From positions 1 to 63,330 of IMG/VR virus record IMGVR_UViG_3300037851_000912: DNA of 63,330 nt; one strand, written 5' to 3'. The DNA comes from a virus. The notes beneath the pieces are model-generated. The model was not told the origin of the DNA. It ran no database searches and worked only from the letters and a program-made list of their open reading frames with translations. The translations under genes were made by a program, and so were the position numbers. Shown here piece after piece: positions 1 through 59,229 of this stretch (position 1 is the first letter of the stretch; every line of letters starts with the position of its first letter).

Positions 1-127
1 CGCATGTGCTGGGCGCCCTCGCGTGGACGCAGCTGGCAAAGATGGACGGGTTCATCGACCGGCGACGCAGGATCGCGGCGATGTACCGCGAGCTGCTGCC
101 CGAGTTCTGGTGGCAGACGATGCCGCC
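1..127. repeat. Terminal overlap copy 1, identical to 63204..63330. The contig is circular or terminally redundant.
   Basis: Read directly: bases 1-127 (cgcatgtgctgggcgccc...gatgccgcc) recur exactly at 63204-63330. One ORF stays in frame across the junction. Confidence 0.95.
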
Positions 128-443
128 TGGAGGATCCGCATGGCTCGAGTTCGTCCGCTTCCCGGTCGAGCCGCCGACGGACCCGGTGGAGCTGGACGAG
201 CTGGGCATCAGCCCGAAGGTGAAGCGGATGGGCGACTGGCTGTTCGAGCGCCAGATCGAGGTGCGGCCCGGGTTCATCCCGCTGCGGCGCCACCCGGCGT
301 TCCGCGTGCCGCCGGATGGCGCCTGGACGGCCGCCGACGACGCCGTGTGGCGAGGGCTCTGCCTGCCTTCGCACCCCGGCCTCGACGACGCGGACGTGCT
401 GTCGGTGGTGAGGGCGGTCAGGGAGGCATGGGAGGTCGCATGA
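1..443 (+). CDS. DegT/DnrJ/EryC1-type PLP sugar aminotransferase, C-terminal part. Same gene as 62483..63330; the unique part is 128..443.
   Basis: Frame of track ORF 6..443. It is in phase with the 62483 start once the 63203 offset is removed. Stop TGA 441-443 overlaps the next ATG (ATGA). Confidence 0.85.
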   Translation, partial: HVLGALAWTQLAKMDGFIDRRRRIAAMYRELLPEFWWQTMPPGGSAWLEFVRFPVEPPTDPVELDELGISPKVKRMGDWLFERQIEVRPGFIPLRRHPAFRVPPDGAWTAADDAVWRGLCLPSHPGLDDADVLSVVRAVREAWEVA

Positions 444-1402
444 AGAAGCGGGCGTTGATCTTCGGCGCGAGCGGGCAGGACGGCCCGTATCTGGCGACCG
501 AGCTGATCGAGCGCGGCTACGAGGTGTGGGGCTGCGTGCCTGGGTGGGACCCGAAGGTGCTGGCGATGCAGTCCCGAGAGCCGCGGATGCAGGTCGTCTA
601 CGGCGACCTGATGGACCCGCACCTGCCGAGCCGTATGCTCGACCACGTGGAGCCCGACGTCGTGTACAGCCTTGCGGCGATCACGTTCGTCCCGGCGTCC
701 TGGGCCGAGGTCGACCCGACCGTCCTGACGAACGGCGTGTTCCCGGTGCGCCTGCTCGAAGCCGTGCGGACGATGGCGCCGCACGTGAAGGTGTACCAGG
801 CCAGCACGTCGGAGATGTTCGGCAAAAGCGCCCCGCCGCAGTCGATCGACACGCCGTTCCTGCCGGTGAGCCCGTACGCCGCGGCGAAACTGCTGGCGCA
901 CCACGCCGTGCACGTGTACCGAGAGAGCTACGGCCTGTTCGCGGTCTCTGGCGTACTGTTCAATCACGAGAGCCCGCACCGGGGCCGCGAGTTCGTGACC
1001 CGTCATGTCTCGATCAGCGTCGCCCGGGCCAGGGCCGGCCAGATCCGAGAGGCGCCGATCGGGAACCTCGCCGGGCTGAGGGATTGGGGCCACGCCGCAG
1101 ACTACGTCCGGGCGATGGTGCTGATGATGGAGAACGACGAGCCGAAGGACTACGTCGTCGGGACCGGCACGATGCACAGCGTCCAAGAGCTGGTCGACTA
1201 CGCGACGGCGATTGCGGCGGTCGACCCGGAGCTGTTCGTCGTGTCGCCGAAGCGAATGCGCCTGGCCGAGACCGCTCCGTTGCAGGCCGACAGCCGGCCG
1301 ATTCGGGACGAGCTGCATTGGCAGCCACGCTACGACTTCGAGGCGCTGATCCGAGAAATGGTGCTGGCCGACATCGAACGGGTCGAGAGGGGCGAGCTGT
1401 GA
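440..1402 (+). CDS. gmd: GDP-mannose 4,6-dehydratase-like SDR
   Basis: ATG 440 inside track ORF 23..1402. MKKRALIFGASGQDGPYL is a Rossmann motif, SPYAAAKLLAHH is YxxxK, and GVLFNHESPHRGREFVTR is the classic GMD block. Confidence 0.85.
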   Translation: MKKRALIFGASGQDGPYLATELIERGYEVWGCVPGWDPKVLAMQSREPRMQVVYGDLMDPHLPSRMLDHVEPDVVYSLAAITFVPASWAEVDPTVLTNGVFPVRLLEAVRTMAPHVKVYQASTSEMFGKSAPPQSIDTPFLPVSPYAAAKLLAHHAVHVYRESYGLFAVSGVLFNHESPHRGREFVTRHVSISVARARAGQIREAPIGNLAGLRDWGHAADYVRAMVLMMENDEPKDYVVGTGTMHSVQELVDYATAIAAVDPELFVVSPKRMRLAETAPLQADSRPIRDELHWQPRYDFEALIREMVLADIERVERGEL

Positions 1403-2802
1403 GGGTCCTGATCGACTTCGTGTGGGAGAACCCGGAGGTCCCGGAGGGCGACAGCTCGTGGCTGTGGAGCCGCGACATCGCGAAGGCGCTGACCGAGCGT
1501 GGGCACTTCGTCTACTGGGTGACGCCGACCCGCGACGGCGACGGCGTCCTCGAGCGGGTCGAACGGCTCGAGGCGACGTCGAGCGCCCGCGAGGCCGAGG
1601 CCATCGTGCCGCCGTCCGTCGCCGCCCGGTGGGCCTCGCCGCTGCAGCCGCTCGACGCCGTGCTGACGAACAACCCGGTCCGGGCGATGGTGCTCGCGCA
1701 ATGGCTGAACACGCTGCACAAGGGCCAGGTCGAGATACCGGTCGTCGTGATGAACGTGAGCGTCAAGTTCCCGGGCTTCGACGAGCTCGGCGCCTTCGGG
1801 CCACGCGACCTCGCGATGTGGGCGTTCGGCTACGCGATGAACCCGAACGTCATGCCGAGCAAGTTCGCCCTCGAGCGGAGCCGCGACGCCGTGTTCGCGT
1901 ACTGCGGGCCGGCGCTGGTCGCGAAGTACGACGAGACGGCCGTGGTCGAGTACCTGGGCCCGCCGACGTCGGTCATCGACGAGGTGCGGCAGCCGAAGTT
2001 CGAGCGGTTCAGCCTGTACTACGGCGGGCGGTTCACCGCGACCAAGGGCGGCGAAGACGTCGTCAACGCCTACGTCCGGTTCCTGATTGGGGGCCGCAAG
2101 GACGCCGACGCCTACGTCACGCACGTCGGGATGGCCCAGCGGCTGCAGGAGGCGCTGGCGAAGTACGACGCCCGCGGGCTGGTCAACGTGCAGGGGAACC
2201 TCGGCTGGCGGCAGGCGGCGGCGCTGATGAGCCGCTGCCACGCCTCCGTGTTCTGGCAGTCGATGAGGATGTTTCCGAGCACGCCGTTCGAGCAGATGTA
2301 CGCCGGGCTCGCCGTCATGATCCGCCGAGACGAGTGGACCGACGAGTTCGTGCCGAAGGAGTACCCGTTCCAGTTCGAGTCGGCCGACGAGCTCGACGCC
2401 CTGCTCCGGTGGGTGGCCGAGAACCGAGATGAAGCGATGGCGAAGATCGCCTGGGTGCCCGAATGGGTAAAGGCGACGTACGACCGGCAGGCCGGCATCG
2501 GCCGGGTGCTGAATCGCCTCGAGGCCAGGACGGACGAGCTGGCCGCGTCGACCGTGGACGGGTACCACCGGCTGAAGGACACGAGGAAGGTGATTGCTGA
2601 GGCGATTGAGACGGTCGGCACGCCCGCGCCGCTGGGCCAGGTGGCGACCGTCCTGACGAGGATGCGGCCCGGGATGCTCCGGACGCACACGACGGCGAAG
2701 GGCCTGTTTATGAACGAGCTGCGGCGCCTCTGGCCGCCCGAGTACGTCGACACGTGCGAGGATCCCGAGCCGATGTTCGTCCGGACGGAGGTGGCGTCGT
2801 GA
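1399..2802 (+). CDS. Putative GT-B fold glycosyltransferase (467 aa)
   Basis: GTG 1399 with GTGA overlap, in track ORF 526..2802. The C-terminal half reads YYGGRFTATKGGEDVV ... PFEQMYAGLAVMI, which is E-x7-E-like. Family call is by eye only. Confidence 0.6.
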   Translation: MRVLIDFVWENPEVPEGDSSWLWSRDIAKALTERGHFVYWVTPTRDGDGVLERVERLEATSSAREAEAIVPPSVAARWASPLQPLDAVLTNNPVRAMVLAQWLNTLHKGQVEIPVVVMNVSVKFPGFDELGAFGPRDLAMWAFGYAMNPNVMPSKFALERSRDAVFAYCGPALVAKYDETAVVEYLGPPTSVIDEVRQPKFERFSLYYGGRFTATKGGEDVVNAYVRFLIGGRKDADAYVTHVGMAQRLQEALAKYDARGLVNVQGNLGWRQAAALMSRCHASVFWQSMRMFPSTPFEQMYAGLAVMIRRDEWTDEFVPKEYPFQFESADELDALLRWVAENRDEAMAKIAWVPEWVKATYDRQAGIGRVLNRLEARTDELAASTVDGYHRLKDTRKVIAEAIETVGTPAPLGQVATVLTRMRPGMLRTHTTAKGLFMNELRRLWPPEYVDTCEDPEPMFVRTEVAS

Positions 2803-3521
2803 CCGAGGTCCGGCTGCCGGTGCTGGTCGACATCGCGCTGATCGACGTCGTGGAATGGAACCCGAACGAGGAGAGCGAGGCGGTATTCGCCCAGTTGGTG
2901 CAGAAGATCCGGGAGCAGGGGTTCAAGCACCCGGTCGACCTCGTGCCGGACGGCGAGCGGTACCGCGTCATCGCCGGCGAGCACCGGGTCAAGGCAGCCG
3001 CGGTCGTCGGGCTGTCGCAGGTGCCGGCGTACATCGACGACGTGTCGGAGGAGGACCGCCAACAGATCGAGAGCATCCGCGACAACGTCGTCCGGGGCAC
3101 GGTCGACCCGGCCCGCTTCACGCGCATCTACGGGAAGCTGGCCCACAAGTACGGGCCCGACGCGCTGCGCCGGATGATGGGGCTGACCGAGGAGGCCGCG
3201 TTCCGGCGTTTGTACCGCGACACGCAGCGGTCCCTGCCGCCCGAGATCCGCAAGCGGATGGCCGCCTCGAAGAAGGAGGTCGCGACGGTCGAGGACCTGG
3301 GCCGGGTGCTGCAGGAGATCTTCGCCACGTACGGCTCGTCGGTCGACCTGTCGTTCGTCGTGTTCAGCTTCGGGGGCCGGGAGCACCTGCTCGTCCGGTG
3401 CGAGAAGCGAGCCTGGGACAACCTGCAGCGCATCACCGACGAGTGCGTCGAGGCCGGGGTGGACGTGAACGACCGGCTGAACCAGCTGCTCGAGCAGTTC
3501 CTGCCCTTCGGCGAGGACTGA
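2799..3521 (+). CDS. ParB/Srx-like N-terminal domain protein, paralog 1
   Basis: GTG 2799 with GTGA overlap. Contains IALIDVVEWNPN ... YRVIAGEHRVKAAAVVGL. Collinear full-length similarity to 60584..61354. Confidence 0.7.
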   Translation: MTEVRLPVLVDIALIDVVEWNPNEESEAVFAQLVQKIREQGFKHPVDLVPDGERYRVIAGEHRVKAAAVVGLSQVPAYIDDVSEEDRQQIESIRDNVVRGTVDPARFTRIYGKLAHKYGPDALRRMMGLTEEAAFRRLYRDTQRSLPPEIRKRMAASKKEVATVEDLGRVLQEIFATYGSSVDLSFVVFSFGGREHLLVRCEKRAWDNLQRITDECVEAGVDVNDRLNQLLEQFLPFGED

Positions 3522-9691: not shown

Positions 9692-12691
9692 GTGGACGAG
9701 CACGAGGTAGCGACATCGGTCGACGGCCGCGTCCTGCCGCCGCCTCCGACTGAGATTGCCCGCACGGGACCGGCGTTCCACGGCGGCAAGACCGTGCGGC
9801 GGCAGCGGGCGACGGCCGGGCGCCAGATCGACCCGCTGGACAAGCTGGGCGTCGGCTGGACCGTCTACGACCGCACGGCGAAGCGGGCGTGGGGACGCGA
9901 GGACGCGACGCTCGACGTCCTGAAGGCGATCCGCGACCTCGACCCGCAGGTGTCGCAGGCGGTGTGGAACTACCTGCGACTGCTGAACCCGGGCCACCGG
10001 CTCGTCGCGGTCGTCGGCGAGGGCACGGACGAGCGCGAGGAGGAGGGCCCCGCGCAGACGTACCTCGACCAGCTAGCCGCCCGCGTCGGCGCGGAATACG
10101 GCGGCGGGCTCGACCAGCTGCACAACGTCCTCGCGCTCTCGCTGATGACGACCGGCGCGGTCGCCGCGGAGGTGGCGCCGACCGGCGGCCTGAACGACGT
10201 CGAGGACTGGTACGCGGTCGACCCGTCGCAGTTGACGTTCCGTCGCGACGTCGACACGTCGGCGCTCGTCCTCGGGCAGCTGCACGCGGATGGGACGTTC
10301 CGCGAGCTGCCGGCCGACCAAGTGTTCTACCAGCCGCTCGACCCGGACGTGAACGACCCGTACGGGCGGCCGCCGTTCCTGCCGGCGATCCAGGCCGTGA
10401 TGAGCCGGTCGGTGATGCTGAGCGACATCCGGGCGGTCGCGCACAACGCCGGGTACCCGCGCATCGACGTCAAGGTCATGTGGGAGGTCGTCAAGGCCGC
10501 GGCACCGCCGCAGCTGCGCGAGCCCGGCCGCGAGGCCGACTTCTCGGCGTGGGCTGAGAAGCAGCTGGGCATGATCGTGTCCGACTACGAGTCGCTGCAG
10601 GTCGACGACACGTTCGTGCACTACGACTGGGTGCAGCCGGCGCTGATGGCGGCTTCGGGCCTGAGCTTCGACTTCGTCGCCCTCGACAACGTGCTGCAGC
10701 GCCAGCTGAACAGCGCCCTGAAGACGCTGCCGATCCTGCTCGGGCTGAACGAGGGTGTCAGCGAGACGCACGGCTCCGTGCAATGGCAGATCCAGGTGGC
10801 CGGGCTCTCGGCGCTGCAGCGTGTGCTGAAACGGCTGATCGAGAAGATGGGGACGACGAGCCTGACGCTGGCCGGCTTCGCCGCCCGGGCCCGGATGCAC
10901 TACGACGACACGCGCACCGTCGACCGGCTGTACGAGGCCCAGGCCGAGCTGTTCGAGGCGCAGAACCTGAAGCTCGACGTCGAGATGGGCTGGCGCGACA
11001 ACGACGAGGCGTCCGTGCTGCGGACCGGCCACGACGCCGTCGCCGAGCCAGGCGAGCAGTCGGCCGCGCAGCTGGCCGCCGACAAGGCCGCCGAGCAGGC
11101 CGCGCAGGTCGGGCCGGCAGTCGGCACGGAAGGCCAGCAGCCGACGGCCGAGGAGAAGCAGCAGTCGGTCGATCCAGCGTGGCAGCTGCTCTGGCAGGAG
11201 CTCCGCAGCGTTAGCGCCCGGGCGGCCGTCCCGATCGGCGAGAAGCTGGACGGCGAGATGCTGGACCGGCTGTCGCAGGGCTACGCCGACGAGGCGCGGC
11301 GGCTGTTCCAGCAGCAGCTCCAGCGGCTGACGGCCACGCTGCTCGGGGAAGGCTGGGACCTGCGGTCGCCGGAAAACCGGGCCTCGCCGCGGGACATCGC
11401 GGACGACGCGTTCGGGCTCGCGTACCGGCGCGAGATGAAGAAGCTCCTGCGGCAGTCGATCAAGGACGGCTACGCGCTCGCCGGGATGCCCGACGCGAAG
11501 GTGCCCGAGAAGCTGGTGCGTCGGATCTGGCGCGACAACGAGCCGTTCCTCGACAAGATCCGCAACGACCTCGCCCGTCAGATCCGCTTCTGGAGCGACG
11601 AGTTCCGGGCCGGCAGGCCGGTGAGGATGGACGACGTCGCCGGGTGGTTCGCGCAGAACGAGTACCGCGAGGCGATGATGGGCCAGTTCCTGACGAAGCA
11701 GGGGCTGGCGACCGGCTACACGAACGCCCGGGTCGAGCAGACCGGCAAGACGGTGTTCCGGTGGGACCTGGGCCCGGTCAAGACCGAGCATTGTGACGAG
11801 TGCAGCGCACGGGCCGGCCGGACGTTCACGTCCGAGCAGCTGTCCCGCATGGGGATGCCGGGGAGCATCAACCTGCCGTGCGTCTCGAACTGCAAGTGCA
11901 GCCTGACCGCGATCCGCTGCACGAAGCGGCAGATGGGCGGGCCGGCCGAGGCACGGGGCGTCAACGGGCCGCCGGAGTGGGAGAACAAGTTCGACTGGTC
12001 TGGCATCGAGGCCCTGAAGGACCGGCCGATGTACGACTGGACGGACGCTGAAAAGGACACGTGGAAGCGGCTGAACAAGCTCGGCGAGTACGAGGAGGAC
12101 AGCGAGCCCTTCGAGGCGTGCACCGTCCTGGCGGTCGAGCAGAAGATCGAGGCGCCGCCGCCGGCCGTCAGGAAGTCGGGGCTTGTCAAGCAGCAGCGCG
12201 ACCTGACGCCAGACGAGCTCGACGCGCTGGTCTCGTACCAGTACGAGTACGGGATCAACGACAGGCTGCGGTCTGGGCGCGGTGATGTCCACCCGGCGGA
12301 CGAGCCACAGGTCCGGCTGCTCGACGGGGCTACGCGCTCGGGTCGCACGACCGAGGCGCACACGTTCACGCGCTATGTCGATGTCAACGCGTTCGAGCAG
12401 CTGGGCTTCGAGCCGCGGGATTGGGTCGGGCAGGAATACTGGGACGAGGCGTACCTGTCGACGTCGCATCACCGCATCACGTCGCCGTTCAGCAACCGCG
12501 GGGTCCGGATGGAGATCAGGGCCAAGAAGGGGACCTACGGCGTGATGGTCGACGAGCAGCCGAACCGGGCCCAGTTCGGCTCGGAGTCGGAGTTCCTGAT
12601 GCCGCGCAACACGGTGATGCGGATCACGAGCGTGACGTACGACGACGAGGTCCGGCAATGGGTGGTGAAGGCGACGGTGACGGGGCAATGA
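9692..12691 (+). CDS. Portal - MuF/SPP1 gp7-like - ADP-ribosyltransferase fusion protein (999 aa)
   Basis: One uninterrupted ORF. The N-terminal ~470 aa look portal-like. The middle part ends in the MuF-type CDECSARAG...VSNCKCSL. The C-terminus shows the ART triad YGINDRLRSG / FTRYV (R) / YLSTS / ESEFLMPRN (ExE). Confidence 0.75.
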   Translation: MDEHEVATSVDGRVLPPPPTEIARTGPAFHGGKTVRRQRATAGRQIDPLDKLGVGWTVYDRTAKRAWGREDATLDVLKAIRDLDPQVSQAVWNYLRLLNPGHRLVAVVGEGTDEREEEGPAQTYLDQLAARVGAEYGGGLDQLHNVLALSLMTTGAVAAEVAPTGGLNDVEDWYAVDPSQLTFRRDVDTSALVLGQLHADGTFRELPADQVFYQPLDPDVNDPYGRPPFLPAIQAVMSRSVMLSDIRAVAHNAGYPRIDVKVMWEVVKAAAPPQLREPGREADFSAWAEKQLGMIVSDYESLQVDDTFVHYDWVQPALMAASGLSFDFVALDNVLQRQLNSALKTLPILLGLNEGVSETHGSVQWQIQVAGLSALQRVLKRLIEKMGTTSLTLAGFAARARMHYDDTRTVDRLYEAQAELFEAQNLKLDVEMGWRDNDEASVLRTGHDAVAEPGEQSAAQLAADKAAEQAAQVGPAVGTEGQQPTAEEKQQSVDPAWQLLWQELRSVSARAAVPIGEKLDGEMLDRLSQGYADEARRLFQQQLQRLTATLLGEGWDLRSPENRASPRDIADDAFGLAYRREMKKLLRQSIKDGYALAGMPDAKVPEKLVRRIWRDNEPFLDKIRNDLARQIRFWSDEFRAGRPVRMDDVAGWFAQNEYREAMMGQFLTKQGLATGYTNARVEQTGKTVFRWDLGPVKTEHCDECSARAGRTFTSEQLSRMGMPGSINLPCVSNCKCSLTAIRCTKRQMGGPAEARGVNGPPEWENKFDWSGIEALKDRPMYDWTDAEKDTWKRLNKLGEYEEDSEPFEACTVLAVEQKIEAPPPAVRKSGLVKQQRDLTPDELDALVSYQYEYGINDRLRSGRGDVHPADEPQVRLLDGATRSGRTTEAHTFTRYVDVNAFEQLGFEPRDWVGQEYWDEAYLSTSHHRITSPFSNRGVRMEIRAKKGTYGVMVDEQPNRAQFGSESEFLMPRNTVMRITSVTYDDEVRQWVVKATVTGQ

Positions 12692-16357: not shown

Positions 16358-16945
16358 ATGGGATACCCGCGGCACATCAAGCCGAACTACGGGCTCGACG
16401 TCGCGAACTGCTTCGTCGCGTCGCTGGGCGCCCCGGCGCTGGCGAGCGCGAACCGGTACGTGACCTCGACGAACATGAAGGTCGGGGCGTATACGGTCGC
16501 CAACGCGGCCTCGGCCGACGGTCTGGCGCGCAACCTCGTGGCGACCATCACGGCCGTCACGGGCAACGACACGCCGGGCGTGCTCGTCATCACGGGCACC
16601 GGCGCCGACGACCGGGCGCTGACCGAGACGCTGACGCTCGTCGCCGGCGGCACGGCCACGGGGCTGAAGTGCTTCAAGACCGTGACCTCGATCGTCGGGT
16701 CGGGGTGGGTCATCAACACCGGCAACGACACGATCGTCGTCGGGACCGGGAACAAGATCCAGCTGCCGAAGGCGGTGCATCAGAGCCCGGCGGCCGTGAC
16801 GGCCGGCGTGTTCATGGTCGTCCTCGGGACCTCGGTCGTGGCGGTCTCGGCTCAGATCGACGACGACATCAGCAAGAGCTGGGTCGACGCAAGCGCCGGC
16901 ACGTACGACGGCTCCAAGAAGCTGTACGCGTTCGTGCTGCGGTAG
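16358..16945 (+). CDS. Structural-module protein, paralog A of 27322..27900
   Basis: Shares TS(T/A)NMKVGAYTVAN and FKTVT.(I/V)VG.GWVIN.GNDT.VVGT with the gene that follows the tail tube. Confidence 0.7.
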   Translation: MGYPRHIKPNYGLDVANCFVASLGAPALASANRYVTSTNMKVGAYTVANAASADGLARNLVATITAVTGNDTPGVLVITGTGADDRALTETLTLVAGGTATGLKCFKTVTSIVGSGWVINTGNDTIVVGTGNKIQLPKAVHQSPAAVTAGVFMVVLGTSVVAVSAQIDDDISKSWVDASAGTYDGSKKLYAFVLR

Positions 16946-17476: not shown

Positions 17477-18030
17477 CCAGGATCGGAGCGAGCTTCCGCA
17501 TCCCGTTCACGCGGGGTCGTTTGCTCTGGCTGCCGGAGGATCCCGGCGAGGCCCTGCGGCCAGGGCGGCTGCTGTTCAACGGCTGGCTGGGTGCCCGCCT
17601 GCTCGATCGCCACGGCTGTGAGATCGACCGATTCGAGCTCGGGTCGGGCGTCGTGACCGACGCCGGCGTGGCGTACATGGTCGACGACTTCGACAACGCG
17701 AGCGGCGGCGCCGACATCAGCCTGTTCAACTACCACGACAGCGGGACGGGCACCGTCGCTGCCGCCGTCGGCGACACCGATCTCGGAACTGCCGCTGGCC
17801 CGACGACCCGGGCGACCGGGACGCGGAGCCAGCCGGCGGCGAACCAGTACCGGACCGTGGGCACAATCACGTACACCGGGACTCTCGCCATCACGGAGTG
17901 GGGCCTGTTCACGGACGCAACCCGCGGCTCCGATACCATGTGGGACCGCCGGGTGTTCACCGCGATCAACGTCGTCAACAACGACAGCATCGAGTTCACG
18001 TACACGCTGACGGTCTCGAGCGGCGGCTAG
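17473..18030 (+). CDS. Hypothetical structural protein (185 aa)
   Basis: ATG 17473 in track ORF 17275..18030. Contains TLAITEWGLFTD, which resembles fibre-collar proteins. Confidence 0.55.
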   Translation: MTRIGASFRIPFTRGRLLWLPEDPGEALRPGRLLFNGWLGARLLDRHGCEIDRFELGSGVVTDAGVAYMVDDFDNASGGADISLFNYHDSGTGTVAAAVGDTDLGTAAGPTTRATGTRSQPAANQYRTVGTITYTGTLAITEWGLFTDATRGSDTMWDRRVFTAINVVNNDSIEFTYTLTVSSGG

Positions 18031-18045: not shown

Positions 18046-18072
18046 GGCGGCATTCCGCACGGAATGACCGCC
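18046..18072 (+). terminator. Hairpin element copy 4 (extended stem)
   Basis: GGCGGCATTCC-GCAC-GGAATGaCCGCC, with further CGGCGGC/GCCGCCG pairing outside the core. Confidence 0.7.
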
Positions 18073-18091: not shown

Positions 18092-18655
18092 ATGAGCAGG
18101 GTCGTCCTGCTGAACAGCGGCGGCATCGACTCTCGGGTCGCGGCCGCCATGCTCGTCGCGTCCGGGATGGAACCACACTCGCTGACGCTGGACTGGAACC
18201 CGGTCGCGAGAGACCGGGTGCTGGCCGCAGCTCAGACCACGGCCGACGCGTACTGCGCGAGCCACCTCGTGTTCGCGTACCCGGTCGACTGGATGCTCCA
18301 CAGCGACAAGCTCGGGCGCCCGCGGATGCCGTACACGGTGCACGTTGCCGTCGCCCTCGGGGCGCAGTACGCGCTCCACGTCGACACGCTCTACGTGGCG
18401 ACCGGAGGGCGCAAGGTGTCGGTCCGAAATCCGGCGACGTGGCACGAGAACATGCAGTCCGCGCTGAACCAGAGCCGGCTGTCTCCGGAGCTGATTGTCC
18501 TGACGCCCGTGTTCGAGCTCGGCGACTCTGCCGTGACCGCGAAGGCTGCCGAGCTCGGCGTCGACCTTACGACCACCTGGTCGTGCTCGCTGGATCCGGC
18601 GTGCGGGACCTGCGTGTCATGCCTGCGCCGTGAGCGCGAAGGAGTCCCATCGTGA
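18092..18655 (+). CDS. queC: QueC-like PP-loop ATPase (7-cyano-7-deazaguanine synthase family), short form of 187 aa
   Basis: VVLLNSGGIDSR is the PP-loop. The C-terminal Zn cluster is TWSCSLDPACGTCVSCLRR. By eye it is collinear with B. subtilis QueC. Confidence 0.7.
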   Translation: MSRVVLLNSGGIDSRVAAAMLVASGMEPHSLTLDWNPVARDRVLAAAQTTADAYCASHLVFAYPVDWMLHSDKLGRPRMPYTVHVAVALGAQYALHVDTLYVATGGRKVSVRNPATWHENMQSALNQSRLSPELIVLTPVFELGDSAVTAKAAELGVDLTTTWSCSLDPACGTCVSCLRREREGVPS

Positions 18656-19275
18656 AATCCGGTACTGCCCAGTTCGCCCTCGTCGCGATGTTCGTCGGAC
18701 TGCACCTGTTCGCGCCGATCACGTCGAACAAGATCCTGCTGGTCGCCGGCCTGACGTTCACGTCCGGGGCGCTCCTGATCGGGGCGAGCTACGCGGTGCT
18801 CGACATCCTGAACGACTGGCAGGGCCGGGAGGTGGCCCGCCAGACCGTGAAGGCGGCGCTGATCGTGCGGACGGTGTTCTTCGTCGTCGTCGTGCCGGTC
18901 ATCATCCTGCTGCCGGCGGCCCGAGAGGTCGAGGGCTTCGAGGACTTCATGACGTCGAGCGTGCGGCTGTTCGCCGCTGGTCTGGCGTCGCTGTTCGTCA
19001 GTTCGTACCTGATCAGCATCCCGGTGTTCACGTGGCTGCGCGAGCGGATGCAGGGACGGTGGTTCGCCCTGCGCTACCTGACGACGAACCTGCCGGTGAT
19101 CGTGTCGGCGACGGTCGTCTACGTCACGCTCGGCTTCGCGTTCGTCGAGGACGTCGACCTCGGGCGGCTGTACTTCGGGCAGACGGTCGCCCGCATCATC
19201 TTCGGCGCCGCCATCGTTCCGATCGTGTGGGGCGTGCGCCAGTACCTGCGCCGCTACGGCGAGCTGTACCGCTGA
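18652..19275 (+). CDS. yhhQ: YhhQ/DUF165-like queuosine-precursor transporter
   Basis: GTG 18652 with GTGA overlap. Polytopic membrane protein. ITSNKILLVAG...ASYAVLDILNDWQGRE matches the family N-terminal block. Confidence 0.65.
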   Translation: MKSGTAQFALVAMFVGLHLFAPITSNKILLVAGLTFTSGALLIGASYAVLDILNDWQGREVARQTVKAALIVRTVFFVVVVPVIILLPAAREVEGFEDFMTSSVRLFAAGLASLFVSSYLISIPVFTWLRERMQGRWFALRYLTTNLPVIVSATVVYVTLGFAFVEDVDLGRLYFGQTVARIIFGAAIVPIVWGVRQYLRRYGELYR

Positions 19276-19287
19276 TGAGGGAGACAC

Positions 19288-21288
19288 GTGGCGAACCGAC
19301 TCGGGGAGCTGCCGCTCAGGCGTAGCCGTTTCGCGAAGCACTTCGCGACGGATGAGGACGGCGTGTTCATCGCCGAGATTGGCGTTGCCCCGCGGCACTT
19401 CCAGAAGTCGGACGACTCGTGGGACGACCTGTCGAACCTCGTCCAGTCCGTCCCGGGCGGCTGGGCTGCTACGGCGAAGGACGTTCGCTTCGGGGTCGAG
19501 AACGGCTGGCTGACCGTCACGTACAAGGGCCGCTCGCTGCAGATGCGGCCGACGGCGGTCGGCATGGTCGACCGGACCGCGCCCGCGACCCGCTGGCGGA
19601 AGCTGGCCGACGCCAGCTATGCCAACGTCAGTCGGTCCGCGAACGAGATCACCGTGACCGACATCTTCCCGCAGACCGACCTGCGGCTGACGCTGAGCGA
19701 CGAGGCGCTGACGAAGGCGTTCACGATCCGCCAGCGCCCGAACCTGCCGGACCCGGTGTCGCTGGGCTGGGACCCCGACAAGACGTTCCTCGTCATCGTC
19801 TGGGACGTGCAGCTCCCGAGCGGGGCTGTCGTCCGCGACACCGACACGCTCGAGCAGGTCGACAACGGCTACGCGGGCCGCAACGACCTCGTCGTCGAGA
19901 CTTCGAGCGGCGACCCGGTCGTGTACTTCAAGGCGGGCACGGCGGAGTCGGCCATCGGGCGGACACACCCGGTCTGGTACGTGTCGGCCGGGGCGAACGT
20001 GCCGTTCGGCGAGGCGGTTCCCTACGCGAAGGCCGCCATCGCTCGCTACCCGCTCGTCATCGACCCGACGACCACGATCACTCGGCCGACGGCCCCAACC
20101 ACGGCGGCATTCGCGTACTTGTCGGTGGACGGCGGAGGCGGTTCGACCGGGAGCACCGTGGTGTGGTATGCCGGGCGTGCCGCTCGGCAGGTCGACCCGG
20201 ACAGCAAAGTGCAGGGCGACGAATACATGGTCGCCGATAAGAAGATCGGTGCCCTGAGGTTCGACCTCAGGGCGGTCTCGGTGAACGCGACCTCTGCCAA
20301 CCTGTTCTTTCGTCGGGTGGCTGGCTATGAGTACAGCTGCGACAACGCAACCGAGCAGACAATCACGCTGGAGAGCTACGACTCTGACTTCGGGGAAACA
20401 TGGAGCGTCGCCGAAGCCGAACAGACGACCGGCCTGACGTTTGAGGACAGCAAGTCCTACACGACGAACACCGAGGGCACCCAGTATTTCTCGATTGACC
20501 CGACACGTCTCGCGTCACATTTCGGCGACTACGCCTGCTTCCGCTTCAAGGGCAGCCTAGAGCCAAATCTGGCCGACACGAACGAGATCATTTCAGACCA
20601 CGCCAACACGTGGATCGAAGCGACGTACACGACGTTCACCGCCCCGTTCCTAGCTGACCTGCGCACGACGTACCCTGCTCCCAGCACGAGCTGCAACGTG
20701 AGCTTCCCGACGTCGACCCAAGCTGGCGACCTCGTCATCGTCACGGCGCAGACCGCCGCCGAGTCGTGCGACAACACGCCGAGCGGATGGGCGAGGTGGC
20801 TGTACCTCGTGCCGTACAGCAACGTCTCGCTGGCTGTGTTCGCCAAGTTCGTCACCGCCGGAGACATCGCCACGGGCTACGTGACGTTGTCGAAGACCGG
20901 GTCTTCGACAACGTGGTTCTGCACGGCCATGAGGGTCCTTGGGGCTGACGCCGACCCGCTCGACGCTAGCGACATCGACGGTGCCGCCAGCGGCGACACG
21001 GTGCAGCTCGACATCACGACCGTCACGAACTACGCGCTCGTGATCGGCATCATCGCCCAGAGCGGGACTAGCGTGGCGAGCACGATGTCGAACCTCGCCG
21101 ACTACTACGTCGGCCTGTCGCAGCGCCCGCAGGTTCGGCAGGCCATGCAGTCCACGGCCGGGTCGTTCAGCAGTATTGCGGACGCCGCCTCGACGATGAA
21201 CATCGTCGCCGCCTTGGTCGCCATCCGGCCGGCGGCGACCGGGCCGGTTGCGCTGACGATGCGCTACGTGCCCGGCGGACAGACCTGA
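19288..21288 (+). CDS. Large virion-associated protein (666 aa) with a DNRLRE-like middle domain
   Basis: GTG 19288. IGALRFDLRAVSVNATSANLFF. The C-terminal domain is paralogous to the N-terminal domain of the next gene. Confidence 0.7.
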   Translation: MANRLGELPLRRSRFAKHFATDEDGVFIAEIGVAPRHFQKSDDSWDDLSNLVQSVPGGWAATAKDVRFGVENGWLTVTYKGRSLQMRPTAVGMVDRTAPATRWRKLADASYANVSRSANEITVTDIFPQTDLRLTLSDEALTKAFTIRQRPNLPDPVSLGWDPDKTFLVIVWDVQLPSGAVVRDTDTLEQVDNGYAGRNDLVVETSSGDPVVYFKAGTAESAIGRTHPVWYVSAGANVPFGEAVPYAKAAIARYPLVIDPTTTITRPTAPTTAAFAYLSVDGGGGSTGSTVVWYAGRAARQVDPDSKVQGDEYMVADKKIGALRFDLRAVSVNATSANLFFRRVAGYEYSCDNATEQTITLESYDSDFGETWSVAEAEQTTGLTFEDSKSYTTNTEGTQYFSIDPTRLASHFGDYACFRFKGSLEPNLADTNEIISDHANTWIEATYTTFTAPFLADLRTTYPAPSTSCNVSFPTSTQAGDLVIVTAQTAAESCDNTPSGWARWLYLVPYSNVSLAVFAKFVTAGDIATGYVTLSKTGSSTTWFCTAMRVLGADADPLDASDIDGAASGDTVQLDITTVTNYALVIGIIAQSGTSVASTMSNLADYYVGLSQRPQVRQAMQSTAGSFSSIADAASTMNIVAALVAIRPAATGPVALTMRYVPGGQT

Positions 21289-27321: not shown

Positions 27322-27900
27322 ATGGGCAAGTCAGAGAGCATCGCCGTCTCGGTGTCGGCCACGGTACCGACCCGTCTCGTGGCTCAGGTGGCGAACCGCC
27401 TCGTCACGAGCGCGAACATGAAGGTCGGCGCGTACACCGTCGCCAACGGCGGTGTAGCGGCCGATGGGAACCCGTTCGTCGTGAGCCTCACGCACACGAC
27501 GGCGACTGGCGCGGACACGCTCGGCACGGTCACGGTGACGGGGACGGACCTCGTCGGCGCGACCGTGCGCGAGACGCTGACGCCCGTCGCCGACGCGATG
27601 GTCGTCGGCAGCCAGGTGTTCAAGACCGTGACCGAGGTCGTTGGCGCCGGGTGGGTCATCAACGGCGGCAACGACACGCTCGTCGTCGGGACGATCCGTG
27701 CCCCGGCGCCGAAGCGGCGGATTCGCGTGCACAACGCCGGGGCGCAGGTCCTGTACCTCGGCGGACCGACCGTGAGCAGCGGCACCGGCGTGGCGGTGGC
27801 AGCCTCGGCCGTCATCGACATCGTGAACGTCGACCCGTTCGAGCTCTACGGGCTCTCGGCGTCGGGCGCTCTCGACGTCAGGATCCTTTCGGTTTGGTGA
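27322..27900 (+). CDS. Structural-module protein, paralog B of 16358..16945
   Basis: By eye, roughly half of the residues are identical over the central ~100 aa shared with 16358..16945. Confidence 0.7.
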   Translation: MGKSESIAVSVSATVPTRLVAQVANRLVTSANMKVGAYTVANGGVAADGNPFVVSLTHTTATGADTLGTVTVTGTDLVGATVRETLTPVADAMVVGSQVFKTVTEVVGAGWVINGGNDTLVVGTIRAPAPKRRIRVHNAGAQVLYLGGPTVSSGTGVAVAASAVIDIVNVDPFELYGLSASGALDVRILSVW

Positions 27901-40641: not shown

Positions 40642-41454
40642 ATGGCGGCAGCCGGGTGGAAGGGCGTGGTCCGGTTCGGACCGATGATCCAGTTCGAGGT
40701 GACGGCGAAGGCGGTCGATCGCGAGACGAAGTTCGCGTTCAACCTGCACCACGCCGAGTGCGGCGGACGGTTGCGGGCGAATCCGGAAGGGTCGCTGTGC
40801 GAGGCGTGCGGCGGGATGGTCACGAAAGAGCAGACGGTCCGCGGGTACAAGGGCGTGCCCGGGCTGGACGACGAGTACCTGAAGTCGCTCGAGCAGTCGA
40901 AGTCGGACGTCCTCGAGGTCGACGGCGTGGTCGACGGGGACGTGATCGAGCCGCGGCTGTTCAAGCGGTCGTACGACCTCGTCCCGGGGACAGCGGCGGC
41001 GAAGCCGTACGCGCTGTTCGCGAAGGCGCTCGCGTACCGGCACGAGGTCGCGATTGGCAAGGTCGTGTTCGGCGGCAAGGAGCAGATCGTCGCCCTGCGC
41101 CCGCGCAAGGGCGTGTTGGAGATGGAGCTCCTGTGGTGGCCGGACGAAGTGAAGTCGTCGGCCGAGGCCGAGGGCGAGATCGCCGGCATCGAGATCAGCG
41201 AGAAGGAGGCGGGGCTGGCCGGGTCGATGCTCGAGATGATGCGAATCGAGTGGGACCCGTCGAAGTACGTGAACGAGTACGCCGCGACGGTCAACGAGTA
41301 CCTGACCGGGTTCCTGGCCGGCAAGGAGCCGGTGAGGATCCAGCCCGTCGCCCGGCCGGAGACGCCGGCGATGTCGCTCGAGGACGCGCTGGCGGCTACG
41401 CTGGCGGCTCTCGGCGAGAAGAAGCCGGAGAAGCTGAAGGGCAAGGTCGCATGA
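40642..41454 (+). CDS. ku: Ku-like DNA end-binding protein with an inserted Zn-ribbon
   Basis: WKGVVRFGPMIQFEV, CGGRL...CEACGGMV, VRGYKG, and KPYALFAKALAYRHEVAIGKVVFGGKEQIVALRP match the bacterial Ku pattern. Confidence 0.7.
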   Translation: MAAAGWKGVVRFGPMIQFEVTAKAVDRETKFAFNLHHAECGGRLRANPEGSLCEACGGMVTKEQTVRGYKGVPGLDDEYLKSLEQSKSDVLEVDGVVDGDVIEPRLFKRSYDLVPGTAAAKPYALFAKALAYRHEVAIGKVVFGGKEQIVALRPRKGVLEMELLWWPDEVKSSAEAEGEIAGIEISEKEAGLAGSMLEMMRIEWDPSKYVNEYAATVNEYLTGFLAGKEPVRIQPVARPETPAMSLEDALAATLAALGEKKPEKLKGKVA

Positions 41455-42821: not shown

Positions 42822-43739
42822 ATGGACCCGGTAGAGAGCACAGCGATGGTGGTGCACAGCAGCTCGGGGCTCGTCGTCGGAGGCTCGATGGCCGACCTGA
42901 CGGAGGGCGAGTTCGAGGCGAGACTGGTCGCGCTGCAGACGCAGCAGCAGCGCATCGCCAAGGTCAAGCAGGCCGTGATGGTCGAGAACCAGGACTACGG
43001 CACGATCCCGGGCACGAAGCGACCGACGCTCCTGAAAGGCGGCGCAGAGAAGCTGTGCAACCTGAACGGGCTGGTCGCGAACATCGTCACGAAGCTGGTC
43101 GCCGGCAACGGCTACGACGAGCCGACGATCCGCTACGACGCGACGTGCACGCTCCACGTCGGGAGCTTTGAGGGACCGACGGTCGCGGTCGGCCACGGGA
43201 CCGCCTCGAGCTGGGAGCGGAAGTACCGCTACGTCAGCCAGAAGGGTTCGCTCGTCTGCCCCGACTGCGACCGGCCGGGCGTGGTCCTGACCCGGCGCGG
43301 GGTGTACTGGCATCCGCTGGACGCGCAGCCCGACGGCGGCTGCGGTGGCAACTTCGCGAAAGACGACCCACAGCTGCTGATCCTGCCCGGACAGAAGATC
43401 GAGGACCCCGACCCGTGGGACAAGGCGAACACACTCCTGAAGATGGCCGAGAAGCGCGCCCACGTCGACGCGACGCTGCGGGCCACGGCCACGTCGGGAC
43501 TGTTCACGCAGGACGCCGAGGACATCGAGCCGCCGGCCCGCCTCGACGCGGCGGTCGACGACGGCGAGGTCGCGCCACCCGAGGGGTCGATGGGCTGGTA
43601 CAAGCAGCAGGTGAAGGGCATCGAGGTCCAGATCGCCGAGGCCGCGGTCGACCTCGGGTTCACAGGGCGGAAGCCGCTCGACTTGCAGCCGGCCGAGCGC
43701 GTCCTGCTGGTGAAGCAGGCCAGGATGAAGGCCGAATGA
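42822..43739 (+). CDS. Putative single-strand annealing / recombination protein (ERF/Rad52-like) with a Zn-ribbon insert
   Basis: ATG 42822, 7 nt after GGAGGTG. QDYGTIPGTKRPTLLKGGAEKL, LLKMAEKRAHVDATLRATATSGLFTQDAED, and CPDCDRPG...CGGN. Confidence 0.45.
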   Translation: MDPVESTAMVVHSSSGLVVGGSMADLTEGEFEARLVALQTQQQRIAKVKQAVMVENQDYGTIPGTKRPTLLKGGAEKLCNLNGLVANIVTKLVAGNGYDEPTIRYDATCTLHVGSFEGPTVAVGHGTASSWERKYRYVSQKGSLVCPDCDRPGVVLTRRGVYWHPLDAQPDGGCGGNFAKDDPQLLILPGQKIEDPDPWDKANTLLKMAEKRAHVDATLRATATSGLFTQDAEDIEPPARLDAAVDDGEVAPPEGSMGWYKQQVKGIEVQIAEAAVDLGFTGRKPLDLQPAERVLLVKQARMKAE

Positions 43740-44836
43740 AGCTGCTTCACGCCGCAGACCTGCACATCGGGTTTAGCGTCCCGGGGCTGCCGAGCGCGCA
43801 GTACCACGCGCTGCACGAACTGACGGAGGCCGCCATCGACCGGAAGGTCGACGCGGTGATTTGGGCCGGCGACACGTTCCACAGCCGACGGCCGTCGCCG
43901 GCCGACCTGCTCGTCGCGGTGCGAGCTGCGAACCGGCTCCGGCAGGCCGGTGTCGAGCTGTTCGTCGGGACCGGGAACCACGACGGGTACACCGCGATCG
44001 GGAACGCCGACTCGCACACGCTCGGCTGGTGGGCCGCCCTCGAGTCGGCGCTCGACGACGGCCGCGGCGAGATCCACGTGATGACCGAGGCCCGGGTGTA
44101 CCGCGGCGGGCTCGCCGTGGCGCATCTGCCGTACCCGCACCGCAGGCTGGTCGCCGGGACGGAGCTCACGCCGCAGGAGCAGGTGGCCGAGGCCGGCCGG
44201 ATCGCCACGCGGACGGTCGTCGACCTCGCCGAGCAGAGCGCCGACCTGCTGGTTGCGCACGTGTCGTTCGAGGGCGCCAGCCTTGGCTCCGAAGCGGCGA
44301 TGCGGATGGGCTGGGACGCGATGCTCGACCCGGTCGTTCTCGAGGCGTTTCCGTACGTCGCGCTTGGGCACGTCCACGTGCAGCAGGAGATCGCCGAGAA
44401 CGCCTGGTACGCCGGGTCGCTCGTCCCGATGGGCTGGGGCGACACGGCGACCGGGTTCCTCGTCGTCGAGGACGGGACCGTCGCGAAGGTGGTGCCGGCG
44501 TCGTCTCCGAGCTGGCTGACGGCCGAGCTGGACGACTGGCCCGGCACGTTCGACGGCGAGGTCGGGCCGCGGTCGCTCGTCCGCGTCATTCTGCGCCAGA
44601 GCCCCGACCCGCGGCTGGCCCGCAGGGTCGTTGACGAGCTGCGGGCCAGCGGCGCAGCATTCGTGAAGGTGCAGTTCGCACCGCCGGAAAAGGAGCGCCG
44701 GCAGGTGGTGGTCGACCGCCTCGACGTCGAGGACCTGATCGCCAGCTGGTGCCGCCGGAACAGCGTCGACGACGAGGCCGTGCCGGTCATGGCGCGGGAC
44801 GTCGTGCAGCATGTGAGGGAACGACGAAGTGGATGA
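43736..44836 (+). CDS. sbcD: SbcD/Mre11-family nuclease
   Basis: MKLLHAADLHIG, WAGDTFH, GTGNHD and ALGHVHV are the phosphoesterase motifs I-V. Confidence 0.85.
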   Translation: MKLLHAADLHIGFSVPGLPSAQYHALHELTEAAIDRKVDAVIWAGDTFHSRRPSPADLLVAVRAANRLRQAGVELFVGTGNHDGYTAIGNADSHTLGWWAALESALDDGRGEIHVMTEARVYRGGLAVAHLPYPHRRLVAGTELTPQEQVAEAGRIATRTVVDLAEQSADLLVAHVSFEGASLGSEAAMRMGWDAMLDPVVLEAFPYVALGHVHVQQEIAENAWYAGSLVPMGWGDTATGFLVVEDGTVAKVVPASSPSWLTAELDDWPGTFDGEVGPRSLVRVILRQSPDPRLARRVVDELRASGAAFVKVQFAPPEKERRQVVVDRLDVEDLIASWCRRNSVDDEAVPVMARDVVQHVRERRSG

Positions 44837-54283: not shown

Positions 54284-54532
54284 GTGACGTACGTGAACGT
54301 GCCGGAGGCGAAGCCCGCCTGGCCGGTGAAGTGTGAGTCCTGCGGGGAGCCGGCCGACCCGAAAACGGGCAGGATCCGTCACCGGGCGACCGAGCCGATG
54401 CCGTCGATGGAGCAGATCGAGGAGTGGGTCTACGACTCGGTGTGCGATGCGACGGACGGATGCGAGGTCGAACCGGACGGGACCTGCCCGCATGGGCACC
54501 GAAGCTGGCTGCTCCGGCTGGGCCTGATCTGA
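54284..54532 (+). CDS. Hypothetical Cys-rich protein
   Basis: CESCG...CDATDGC...CPHGH. Confidence 0.6.
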   Translation: MTYVNVPEAKPAWPVKCESCGEPADPKTGRIRHRATEPMPSMEQIEEWVYDSVCDATDGCEVEPDGTCPHGHRSWLLRLGLI

Positions 54533-57526: not shown

Positions 57527-58459
57527 GTGAGACGACCGTCTCAGCACGCGGCCGCCCGGAGCGCGCTGCACAAGCACATCCGCCGAGGCGAGGTCGAGCA
57601 GGCCGCCGGCGTAGCGCGCTACCTGCATGAGCTGAACGACGACGACGGGCTGGCGCGACGCCTGACGGCCATCGTGACCGAGGACGTCGAGCCGTACTGG
57701 CTCCCGGTCGTGGCGAAGGAGGCGGTGCGGGCCATGACGCCCGACCCGGCCGAGGAGCCGGCCGACCTCGTCCGCGTCGCGGCGACGCTGGCCGCGGCCC
57801 CGAAGCGGAAGGAGAGCTACTGGCTCGCCGAGACGGTGTGGGAGAACCGGACCCCGCCGAGAGAGCCGGCCGGCTTCGCCTCGCTCGAGGCGGCGGTCGA
57901 GCATGGCGACCACGCGCAGGTGCTGGCGCAGCTGCTCTGGTTCCACGAGCAGCGGAAGATCCGCGAGGCCGAGGACCTGCTGCGACGGCGGCACGTCCGG
58001 TCGGCGCTGGCCGAGGACATGCTGCGGTGGGCCGTCTGGCGCCTGCAGCTCGGCGGCTTCGGCGGCGGCGAGGCGTTGGCTGCGGCTGCGGTCGCGCTGG
58101 TCGACGCGCCCGAACAGGCCCGGCCGTTCGAGCAGTTCGACATCGACGTCGAGCCGTTGGGCCCGCCGTACGAGTGGTACTGCTACGACGCCCACACGCA
58201 GGTGGGCAAGATCGCGGTCGGGTCGTTCGCCAAGCGCCGGGGCTGGAACCGCGACCAGCTGGGGATGCTGTCGTTCTACTACGAGAGCGCCGTGCTCGGG
58301 CCGTCGGTCGTGCCCGGTCGATGGGACGGAGAGGCCGCCGAGCTGCTGGCGCGGACGTACGGCTGGCTGACGCCGGAGCACGGGGCCGACCTGTGGGCGG
58401 CGATCCGGGTCGACTTCATGGGGCTGGTGCGTTGGCTGCTCGCACGCGGCGTCGGGTGA
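57527..58459 (+). CDS. MgsA/RarA C-terminal-domain-like protein lacking an AAA+ module
   Basis: GTG 57527 after GGAGGGACGAG. SALHKHIRRGEVEQAAGVARYL...LARRLTAIVTEDVEP...LAAAPKRKESYW...YCYDAHTQ resembles the MgsA_C pattern. Confidence 0.45.
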   Translation: MRRPSQHAAARSALHKHIRRGEVEQAAGVARYLHELNDDDGLARRLTAIVTEDVEPYWLPVVAKEAVRAMTPDPAEEPADLVRVAATLAAAPKRKESYWLAETVWENRTPPREPAGFASLEAAVEHGDHAQVLAQLLWFHEQRKIREAEDLLRRRHVRSALAEDMLRWAVWRLQLGGFGGGEALAAAAVALVDAPEQARPFEQFDIDVEPLGPPYEWYCYDAHTQVGKIAVGSFAKRRGWNRDQLGMLSFYYESAVLGPSVVPGRWDGEAAELLARTYGWLTPEHGADLWAAIRVDFMGLVRWLLARGVG

Positions 58460-59212: not shown

Positions 59213-59229
59213 CCGTCAGGGGCAAGCCC

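Follow-up and report, generated by a model that had tools for sequence, protein, structure and literature searches.

IMG/VR virus record IMGVR_UViG_3300037851_000912 (63,330 nucleotides, analyzed at its full length and hereafter called the window) carries a compact cassette of three genes (~3.2 kb) that encode a QueC-like enzyme, a YhhQ-type permease and a fibre-like protein:

18092..18655, + strand: g27, QueC-fold PP-loop ATP pyrophosphatase with a Cys4 zinc site, 187 amino acids (aa); from Pfam QueC and AlphaFold2 (AF2)/Foldseek
18652..19275, + strand: g28, Vut_1/COG1738 (YhhQ-type) membrane permease, 207 aa; from Pfam Vut_1
19288..21288, + strand: g29, fibre-like protein and third cassette member, 666 aa; from adjacency and weak fold matches

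The trio recurs in unrelated phages without a base-swapping enzyme, so its role is probably something other than DNA modification. We tentatively favour, at somewhat less than an even chance, the reading that these genes form a mobile cassette of late genes, whose neofunctionalised ATP-dependent ligase and permease act with or on the fibre-like protein, and that they are not a DNA modification system. An earlier note on this DNA had singled out the first two genes and considered three roles for them: salvage of a precursor that feeds an inserter, modification of a protein such as a virion component, and a link to the sugar island of the genome.

We surveyed the trio with hidden Markov models (HMMs) over all fetched loci plus a metagenome scan, and read the flanks for 10 kb on either side of it. 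The full trio was found in 17 independent contigs (the window, L001, L004, L007-L010, L013-L015, L017, L019-L023 and one ENA contig). For 15 out of these 17, the gene order is QueC-like, Vut_1, g29-like; the g29-like gene comes first in L004 and in the ENA contig. L003, L018, L024, L025 and L026 are too short or cut off and stand outside this third-gene count, and L005 is a duplicate of L004. GC content lies between 43 and 74% across all the contigs and between 48 and 74% in those with the full trio. In the ~20 kb around the trio, almost no other protein resembles one of the window's, apart from a g26-like and a g30-like gene in two contigs and a single tail protein in a further one. The position of the cassette relative to capsid, tail and portal genes also varies between contigs. 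Because the flanks are unrelated and the position is variable, the three genes behave as a mobile, co-translated cassette.

Searches seeded with g29 found QueC-like and Vut_1 genes adjoining it in 4/4 look-ups, including that of the weakest member of the tight g29 family. An exhaustive search puts 32 of 1.84 billion representatives in this tight family (E<=1e-30), which makes it similar in size to the QueC-like family (28 clusters). The remaining g29 matches form a long tail, mostly to the middle CBM96-like module alone and some to the N-terminal part alone. Across 185,579 species genomes the trio occurs on only one 8.8-kb contig, which was binned into a Chloroflexi metagenome-assembled genome. 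A literature search found no published description of the trio. The earlier note had proposed a survey of QueC and YhhQ pairs in phages that lack DpdA; such pairs do recur across phages, but the unit is the trio with g29, which the note had missed.

The genes are tightly joined. In the window the stop codon of g27 and the start codon of g28 overlap as GTGA at 18652-18655, with AGGAG 8 nucleotides (nt) 5' of the GTG start; the earlier note had reported this overlap, and it holds. The QueC-like and Vut_1 genes overlap by 4 to 40 nt in 10/11 loci. The junction between Vut_1 and the g29 N-domain is an overlap of 7 to 20 nt or a gap of 3 or 12 nt, in loci that span 48-74% GC. A Vut_1 gene lies directly 3' of the QueC-like gene in all judgeable fetched loci but L006; in one locus it had been left uncalled and was then confirmed by Pfam.

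The absence of a DNA-modifying partner can be assessed because the window is a circularly closed, complete assembly: it has 63,203 unique bases and an exact terminal direct overlap of 127 bp (1-127 = 63204-63330), so that 'anywhere in the genome' carries meaning for missing genes. The genome is phage-like with 69% GC, and GC-frame analysis called 86 genes, 86/86 on the + strand. We scanned all 86 called proteins with Pfam, the small ones joined as pseudo-proteins, and found none matching PF01702 (tRNA-guanine transglycosylase, TGT), PF20314 (DUF6610, which is DpdA4), FolE, QueD, QueE or QueF. BLASTP of two phage DpdAs together with QueD, QueE and FolE, taken from a 9g-like Klebsiella phage and mycobacteriophage Rosebush, gave nothing better than E 0.2 against the six reading frames. 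L016, a viral contig unrelated to the window, served as a positive control: there these queries picked up a complete DpdA-QueC-QueD-QueE-FolE cluster. The best E-value of a three-sequence DpdA HMM, which does not include DpdA3 types and was run with --max (filters off), was 0.5, and hhalign of the DpdA profile against each window protein peaked at 21% probability, in a 29-residue stretch of a 65-aa open reading frame (ORF). The window contains no tRNA genes and no Rfam families, preQ1 riboswitches included. No DpdA or preQ0-pathway gene was found in the fetched trio flanks.

Taken together, the Pfam, BLASTP, HMM, hhalign, tRNA and Rfam negatives confirm the earlier note's claim that the genome lacks TGT/DpdA, FolE, QueD, QueE and QueF. 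Its premise, that described phage 7-deazaguanine modifications require a DpdA, agrees with a 2023 survey in which every phage known to have 7-deazaguanine in its DNA encodes one (PMC10516641). The note had also called for a search of every ORF for a TIM-barrel TGT fold. TGT/DpdA profile searches were negative on all window proteins, and the structural part of that check covers g29, whose model is all-beta (among window proteins, AF2 models were made for g27 and g29 only). One further ORF, g81 (57527..58459, 310 aa), was tried as a DpdA and rejected: it has no PFAM, PHROG or PADLOC match and the DpdA profile was negative. The g81 N-terminus resembles, by eye only, the C-terminal helical motif of RarA/MgsA.

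The earlier description of g27 as a short QueC-family PP-loop enzyme also stands. The protein begins with MSRVVLLNSGGIDSR, SGGIDS covers residues 9-14, and its cysteines at 165/171/174/177 form a C-terminal C-x5-C-x2-C-x2-C zinc cluster. Pfam QueC matches g27 above the gathering score (50 bits, E 3e-13), and the PADLOC 'QueC' model matches it end to end (6-182 of 190). The NCBIfam QueC equivalog TIGR00364 gives only 35.3 bits against a cutoff of 150.3. The AF2 model has a predicted local distance difference test (pLDDT) score of 95.5. Its best Foldseek match is Cap9 of type IV CBASS, a bacterial immune system (9nto_B, TM-scores 0.78/0.81, E 9e-11), followed by QueC 3bl5 (0.77/0.74). A profile of the g27 family ranks PDB sequences in the same way, with Cap9 at 62 bits, QueC 2pg3 at 48 bits and QueC 3bl5 at 29 bits; QatC, at 14.5 bits, is at noise level. 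In 5.8 billion proteins, g27 has relatives in only 28 clusters, all metagenomic and 181-216 aa long, and an alignment of 28 family members has 20 invariant positions. Among 50,697 deposited phage genomes, g27 matches only the Gat-QueC of 9g-like phages, at 26% identity.

We then compared the 28 members with proteins of known function by aligning them with QueC 2pg3, Cap9 and two DpdA-associated phage QueCs (Rosebush and L016). In E. coli QueC, Y35, R99, Y131 and Y189 are essential by mutagenesis, according to a 2026 study that also defined the QueC, Cap9 and QatC family signatures (PMC13329287). The Cap9 and QatC structure papers describe the Tyr/Asp pair of YxDC as the deazaguanine-recognition element (QatC: PMC13279940). 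The g27 family shows the following at these positions:

PP-loop SGGxDS: 28/28 members
Four zinc cysteines: 28/26/28/28 of 28 members
QueC Y35 position: Trp in 25/28
QueC Q37 and H39: 0/28 each
QueC R99: 0/28
QueC Y131: 0/28
QueC C134 position: gap in 28/28
QueC Y189: 0/28

The first two cysteines are separated by 5 residues in 22 members and by 6 in the other 6, compared with 8 in the canonical QueC motif C(x)8CxxCxxC. Both the Rosebush and the L016 QueC, each encoded beside a DpdA, retain every tested QueC residue. The Cap9 motifs fare no better in the QueC-aligned columns: none of the 28 members has the Gln, the RN Arg or the YxDC Tyr, and the YxDC Cys falls in a gap in 28/28, with the Cap9 row misaligned at RN in this alignment. 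In an HMM alignment, Cap9 R86 pairs with an Arg that is retained only in the closest relatives of the window. The family has its own invariants instead (N8, R15, S30, T50, Y54, H58 and R180, with D66 and W67 nearly invariant). Since the PP-loop and the zinc cysteines are kept and family-specific invariants are present, g27 appears to be under selection as a probably catalytic, ATP-dependent enzyme with a rebuilt pocket. Membership tests place the family outside canonical QueC, Cap9 and QatC alike, and the 2026 survey of PF06508 covered no cluster of the g27 type. Judged by sequence, the g27 family is a new, phage-only QueC-fold subfamily with a remodelled substrate pocket that lacks the base-recognition residues of both canonical QueC and Cap9.

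The likeness to canonical QueC (TIGR00364, PF06508 cluster 1) extends to the superfamily, the PP-loop and a C-terminal zinc ribbon, the last with its first two cysteines closer together (5-6 residues instead of 8). Unlike canonical QueC, g27 is 30-40 residues shorter, has lost YxQxHxxE, VPxRN, YPDC and Y189, and has no queD or queE neighbours. With Cap9 (PDB 9NTO chain B) it shares compactness (187 vs 191 aa), the QueC Rossmann-like fold, the PP-loop and the Cys4 zinc site. However, the g27 family does not conserve the Cap9 motifs Y/FxQ(x)5E, RN and H(x)4YxDC, among whose residues R86, Y115 and D117 contact the base, and g27 is phage-borne, lies outside any defence island and has a permease as its partner. 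Among window proteins there is no CD-NTase, Cap10, Cap11 or Qat partner by Pfam, and PADLOC gives the QueC model only. QatC of QatABCD is similar in being a QueC-family enzyme in which the deazaguanine-recognition Tyr/Asp pair is replaced and the substrate is uncertain (PMC13279940). It differs from g27 in its length (~400-465 aa), its N- and C-terminal extensions and its QatA/B/D partners, and the match between the two is negligible (PADLOC E 0.046; PDB 14.5 bits).

The second gene product, g28, has six hydrophobic, transmembrane-like segments and matches Pfam Vut_1 at 57 bits (cutoff 27), in line with the YhhQ-type transporter named in the earlier note. It resembles the YhhQ/COG1738 preQ0-preQ1 transporters in its Vut_1 family, its length and its six hydrophobic helices. 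No other family is known to transport 7-deazaguanine bases, and g28 is the permease dedicated to this cassette. Unlike YhhQ, g28 is divergent: it scores 50.7 bits with TIGR00697, the 'queuosine precursor transporter' model, just under the cutoff of 50.95, and no preQ1 riboswitch was detected 5' of the pair in the window or in 10 loci. The characterised substrates of Vut_1 proteins are preQ0 and preQ1 (PMC5372724). We found no match to g28 in the 50,697 deposited phage genomes, and no cellular homolog shared enough words with it to be recovered. Queuine is reportedly a further Vut_1 substrate, according to a 2019 report.

It is already known that phage queC genes can stand beside yhhQ in dpdA clusters, and that the QueC fold has been reused for protein modification (Cap9, QatC); the earlier note had missed the former. 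For instance, phage CAjan has queC and yhhQ within its dpdA cluster, and deletion of yhhQ left the DNA modification unchanged (PMC7544227). L016 (7379-11411; 37% GC) holds a classical cluster of DpdA, canonical QueC, Vut_1, QueD, QueE and FolE. In its Vut_1 ORF, which overlaps the QueC stop codon by 4 nt, there appears to be a frameshift or truncation past residue 132. The window shares with the classical clusters of CAjan, Rosebush and L016 the adjoining QueC-family and Vut_1/YhhQ genes, including a 4-nt overlap as in L016. It differs from them in its remodelled QueC, its location in the structural module, its coupling to a fibre-like gene and the lack of any detected DpdA, FolE, QueD or QueE. 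What is new here, besides the predicted subfamily, is the fixed pairing of a QueC-like enzyme with a divergent permease where DpdA is absent, and the linkage of this pair to a fibre-like structural gene as a mobile trio.

The third protein, g29, consists of a conserved all-beta N-domain (aa 1-265, nt 19288-20082), a CBM96/TGF-beta-propeptide-like jelly-roll at about aa 290-425 and a variable C-terminus. A conserved N-domain followed by a variable C-terminus would fit the usual pattern of fibre-type virion proteins. In the AF2 model, residues 1-260 are all beta with a block-mean pLDDT of ~68-89, and the remainder is poorly predicted. Foldseek gave weak matches to phage tail-complex chains, galactose-mutarotase-like sandwich domains of glycan-active enzymes and TGF-beta-propeptide-like jelly rolls, with further weak matches to viral tail fibre, tail spike, baseplate and LamG proteins. 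The g29 homolog in L013 has a weak CBM96 match. No Pfam or PHROG family matches g29, its N-domain has no match in the 50,697 deposited phage genomes, and the N-domain profile found nothing among PDB sequences. The N-terminus carries a conserved E..R.R.AKHF motif with an invariant lysine (Lys17 of AKHF). Three other interpretations of g29 were rejected. It is not a hidden TGT/DpdA, since its all-beta N-domain has no TIM barrel. A Tat signal was rejected by eye, the N-terminus having R-x-R instead of RR and no hydrophobic stretch after it. A domain common to the g29 C-terminus and the g30 N-terminus was not significant (E 0.25).

Under the favoured reading, the cassette would work in three steps. 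The COG1738 permease would carry a small heterocyclic base across the host membrane, probably a 7-deazapurine-like one by analogy with YhhQ. g27 would then adenylate a carboxyl group with ATP at its PP-loop and form an amide with an amine, which is the general chemistry of QueC and Cap9; because its pocket is rebuilt, the substrate, the nucleophile or both would differ from those of canonical QueC. Finally, the product would act on or with the co-translated, fibre-like carbohydrate-binding protein, either by being attached covalently to a virion component or by binding to it as a ligand. The analysis shows the fold, the kept and lost motifs, the translational coupling, the co-inheritance of the three genes and the lack of detectable DpdA and preQ0-pathway genes; what the permease carries, which reaction the ligase performs and the part of g29 as target or partner are all inferred. 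A more specific version, in which g27 covalently attaches the imported nucleobase-like compound or another small carboxylate to g29, for instance at the invariant Lys17 of AKHF, seems quite unlikely to us.

Several observations weigh against the favoured reading. The residues by which QueC and Cap9 bind deazaguanine are missing, so the link to deazapurines comes down to the permease family, and there the assignment of g28 is itself borderline for the YhhQ equivalog (TIGR00697). L002 has a QueC-like and Vut_1 pair in which no g29 domain was detectable, and L006 (10001-11168) has two tandem QueC-like paralogs with neither a Vut_1 nor a g29-like gene. The three genes could also be neighbours because a cargo pair hitch-hikes on a mobile fibre module, and it is the position and the weak fold matches of g29 that suggest it is a virion protein. 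Deazaguanylation by Cap9 and QatC requires a target with an exposed N-terminal glycine on an unstructured tail (PMC13279940). Unlike the known targets of these enzymes, g29-like proteins have neither an N-terminal Gly nor a disordered tail. They begin with MAN, MPT or MVT, or with MPE and MRE in two loci, and residues 4-7 of g29 are modelled as a strand (pLDDT ~83), leaving a structured N-terminus and no free tail. Gly at position 2 was found on none of the g29-like proteins (11 loci), Vut_1 proteins (12 loci) or QueC-like proteins (28-member alignment). The protein modification considered in the earlier note gains circumstantial support from a fold and size closest to Cap9 and from the co-inherited fibre-like protein, but two hallmarks of Cap9/QatC chemistry, the Tyr/Asp base-recognition pair and the N-terminal glycine, are absent.

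If the more specific version, with covalent attachment to g29, were true, this would be the first viral nucleobase-protein conjugation used for building or tuning a particle, and a phage-side counterpart of the Cap9/QatC immune chemistry. QueC-family enzymes were long seen solely as makers of queuosine and preQ0 precursors, and since 2025 two bacterial immune systems have been shown, or proposed, to modify proteins with them. Under the favoured reading, the cassette would be a third independent repurposing of QueC, this time in phages, with a rebuilt pocket, a dedicated permease and a structural-protein partner. For annotation, the practical rule is that DNA hypermodification should not be assigned on the strength of a phage 'QueC + YhhQ' pair when the canonical pocket residues and DpdA are both missing.

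Of the other explanations, the one that survives best treats g27 and g28 as an auxiliary metabolic pair. Import of preQ0/preQ1, together with synthesis of preQ0 from host 7-carboxy-7-deazaguanine (CDG), would raise the 7-deazaguanine pool for host Tgt (tRNA queuosine) or a host DpdA, and the fibre gene would be a mere neighbour. Such pairs have precedents, in that 48 phages have preQ0-pathway genes and no DpdA and some phages encode YhhQ (Hutinet et al. 2019), and queC and yhhQ also stand together in the classical clusters of CAjan (PMC7544227) and L016. All family-level annotations, moreover, are QueC and YhhQ. However, R99, Y131 and Y189 are absent from every g27-family member although the Rosebush and L016 QueCs keep them, the TIGR00364 score of 35 is far from the cutoff of 150, the phage has no FolE, QueD or QueE from which CDG could come and neither a tRNA nor a riboswitch, and the strict, translationally coupled linkage to g29 across 48-74% GC is left unexplained. 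The salvage route proposed in the earlier note is weakened by the same residues and equivalog score and by the all-beta fold of g29 as candidate inserter. We regard this explanation as possible but unlikely.

The pair could instead be cargo on a mobile fibre module. In that case it would counter QueC-based immunity (type IV CBASS Cap9, QatC), either by acting like a decoy Cap9 or by exporting the deazapurine precursor or drawing it off, or it would exclude other phages, and the linkage to g29 would arise solely because fibre modules recombine as blocks. Accessory genes are common in fibre regions, and this cassette is a mobile unit in phages unrelated to one another. Cap9 ranks first by both profile and fold and is almost equal in length to g27, and the PADLOC 'QueC' model covers nearly the whole of g27. 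Nevertheless, the genes lie in a late structural operon and not among early genes, no CD-NTase, Cap10 or Qat partners were found, and the stop-over-start coupling to g29 is tighter than expected of unrelated cargo. Draining of CDG is unlikely, because the CDG-binding residues are absent from the g27 family. The cargo explanation as a whole appears distinctly unlikely.

It is also conceivable, if improbable, that the substrate is not a deazapurine at all. Like PF06508 members of the WbpG type, g27 would then amidate a different carboxylate, for example a sugar acid or a precursor of the cell envelope; the permease would move the compound, and the module would modify a glycan related to the target of the fibre. 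The loss of the deazaguanine-recognition residues and the TIGR00697 score of g28, just under its cutoff, are consistent with this, as are the sugar amidotransferases and other non-deazapurine enzymes within PF06508 and the CBM96-like and glycan-enzyme-like sandwich features of g29. The best profile and fold matches, however, are QueC and Cap9 and not WbpG, LarE or GMPS, the characterised Vut_1 substrates are preQ0 and preQ1 (PMC5372724), and the cassette has no glycan-pathway partner.

A cryptic DNA modification, in which the product would enter phage DNA through a non-homologous or undetectably divergent base-exchange enzyme (the g29 N-domain or an ORF of no assigned family), is very improbable: DpdA3 and DpdA4 were overlooked for years and detected only by HHpred (PMC10516641), many window ORFs have no family and our DpdA profile lacks DpdA3, but Pfam TGT and DUF6610 as well as the DpdA HMM and hhalign were negative, the g29 N-domain is all-beta with no TIM barrel, the g27 family lacks the residues to make preQ0 or 7-amido-7-deazaguanine (ADG) from CDG, and no fetched trio flank contains a DpdA. 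The proposed link to the sugar island found no support: where the pair occurs in other phages, sugar genes are not conserved along with it.

Two further elements lie just upstream of the trio:

17521..18030, + strand: g26, function-unassigned protein, 169 aa, with homologs directly 5' of the QueC-like gene in L009 and L014
18050..18066: exact copy of a 17-nt palindrome, GCATTCCGCACGGAATG, marking a boundary just 5' of the trio

The g26 homologs are 73% identical in L009 (7775-8833) and 56% identical in L014 (9301-9969), where the QueC-like proteins are 39% and 60% identical, respectively. No g26 homolog occupies the position 5' of the QueC-like gene in the other loci, and no Pfam family matches g26. 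From these comparisons, g26 is possibly associated with the cassette in a subset of phages.

The palindrome is the core of a longer imperfect hairpin, GGCGGCATTCCG-CAC-CGGAATGaCCGCC, and has 17 matches in the window where 0.19 would be expected by chance. The copy at 18050-18066 is the fourth on the + strand, with the start of g27 25 nt further on, so the pair does follow hairpin copy 4 directly, as the earlier note had said. On the + strand the palindrome occurs at gene-block boundaries (6253, 9570, 16305, 18050, 27923, 39639, 48953 and 52660) and within ORFs (32407 and 61324). No T-tract terminator or sigma-70-like promoter was found near the 18050-18066 copy. The palindrome itself has no T-tract. 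It could serve a regulator as a binding site, or it could form an RNA hairpin and so punctuate the operons, which all run on one strand.

Elsewhere in the window, the Pfam scan matched a GpA-type terminase, Phage_tail_S, tail tube, tape measure, and LamG/fn3 and carbohydrate-binding-module tail proteins, as well as Ku, Mre11-like, SbcC-like, ParB, ATP-dependent DNA ligase and sugar-island enzymes. No nucleotide match to the window exists among the 50,697 deposited phage genomes, and Pfam recognised no DNA polymerase in the window. Ku, an Mre11/SbcD-like phosphoesterase, an SbcC/Rad50-like ATPase and an ATP-dependent DNA ligase are encoded at 40642-41454, 43736-44836, 45208-47193 and 54532-55470, respectively. 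The sugar island (58478-63330 and 1-3521) extends across the circular junction and encodes two glycosyltransferase-like proteins, a cupin, an epimerase-like protein, a DegT aminotransferase, a GDP-mannose 4,6-dehydratase and a GT1/GT4 protein; the DegT-like gene itself crosses the junction (62483 onward, then 1-443). Two ParB_N paralogs that are 35% identical accompany the island, g84 (60584-61354) and g04 (2799-3521), and both have weak PADLOC matches to type II methyltransferase models via their ParB-like part.

At the L006 locus, a TIG/LVIVD-repeat protein is encoded 3' of the tandem QueC-like genes; a lipoate/biotin-protein ligase 5' of them was a by-eye guess that Pfam did not support. 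In L007 (7523-9563), a GT2 glycosyltransferase and a SPASM-domain protein lie between the trio and the portal gene, which hints at further protein-modifying enzymes in such virion modules. Upstream of the head genes of the window, a 999-aa protein (9692-12691) ends in an ADP-ribosyltransferase exoenzyme domain (aa 835-997, Pfam E 2.6e-15), which may be an injected or virion-borne toxin-like domain. Finally, g24 (16358-16945, after the presumed capsid gene) and g37 (27322-27900, after the tail tube gene) are paralogs with 56% identity over 101 aa, and both start with Met-Gly.

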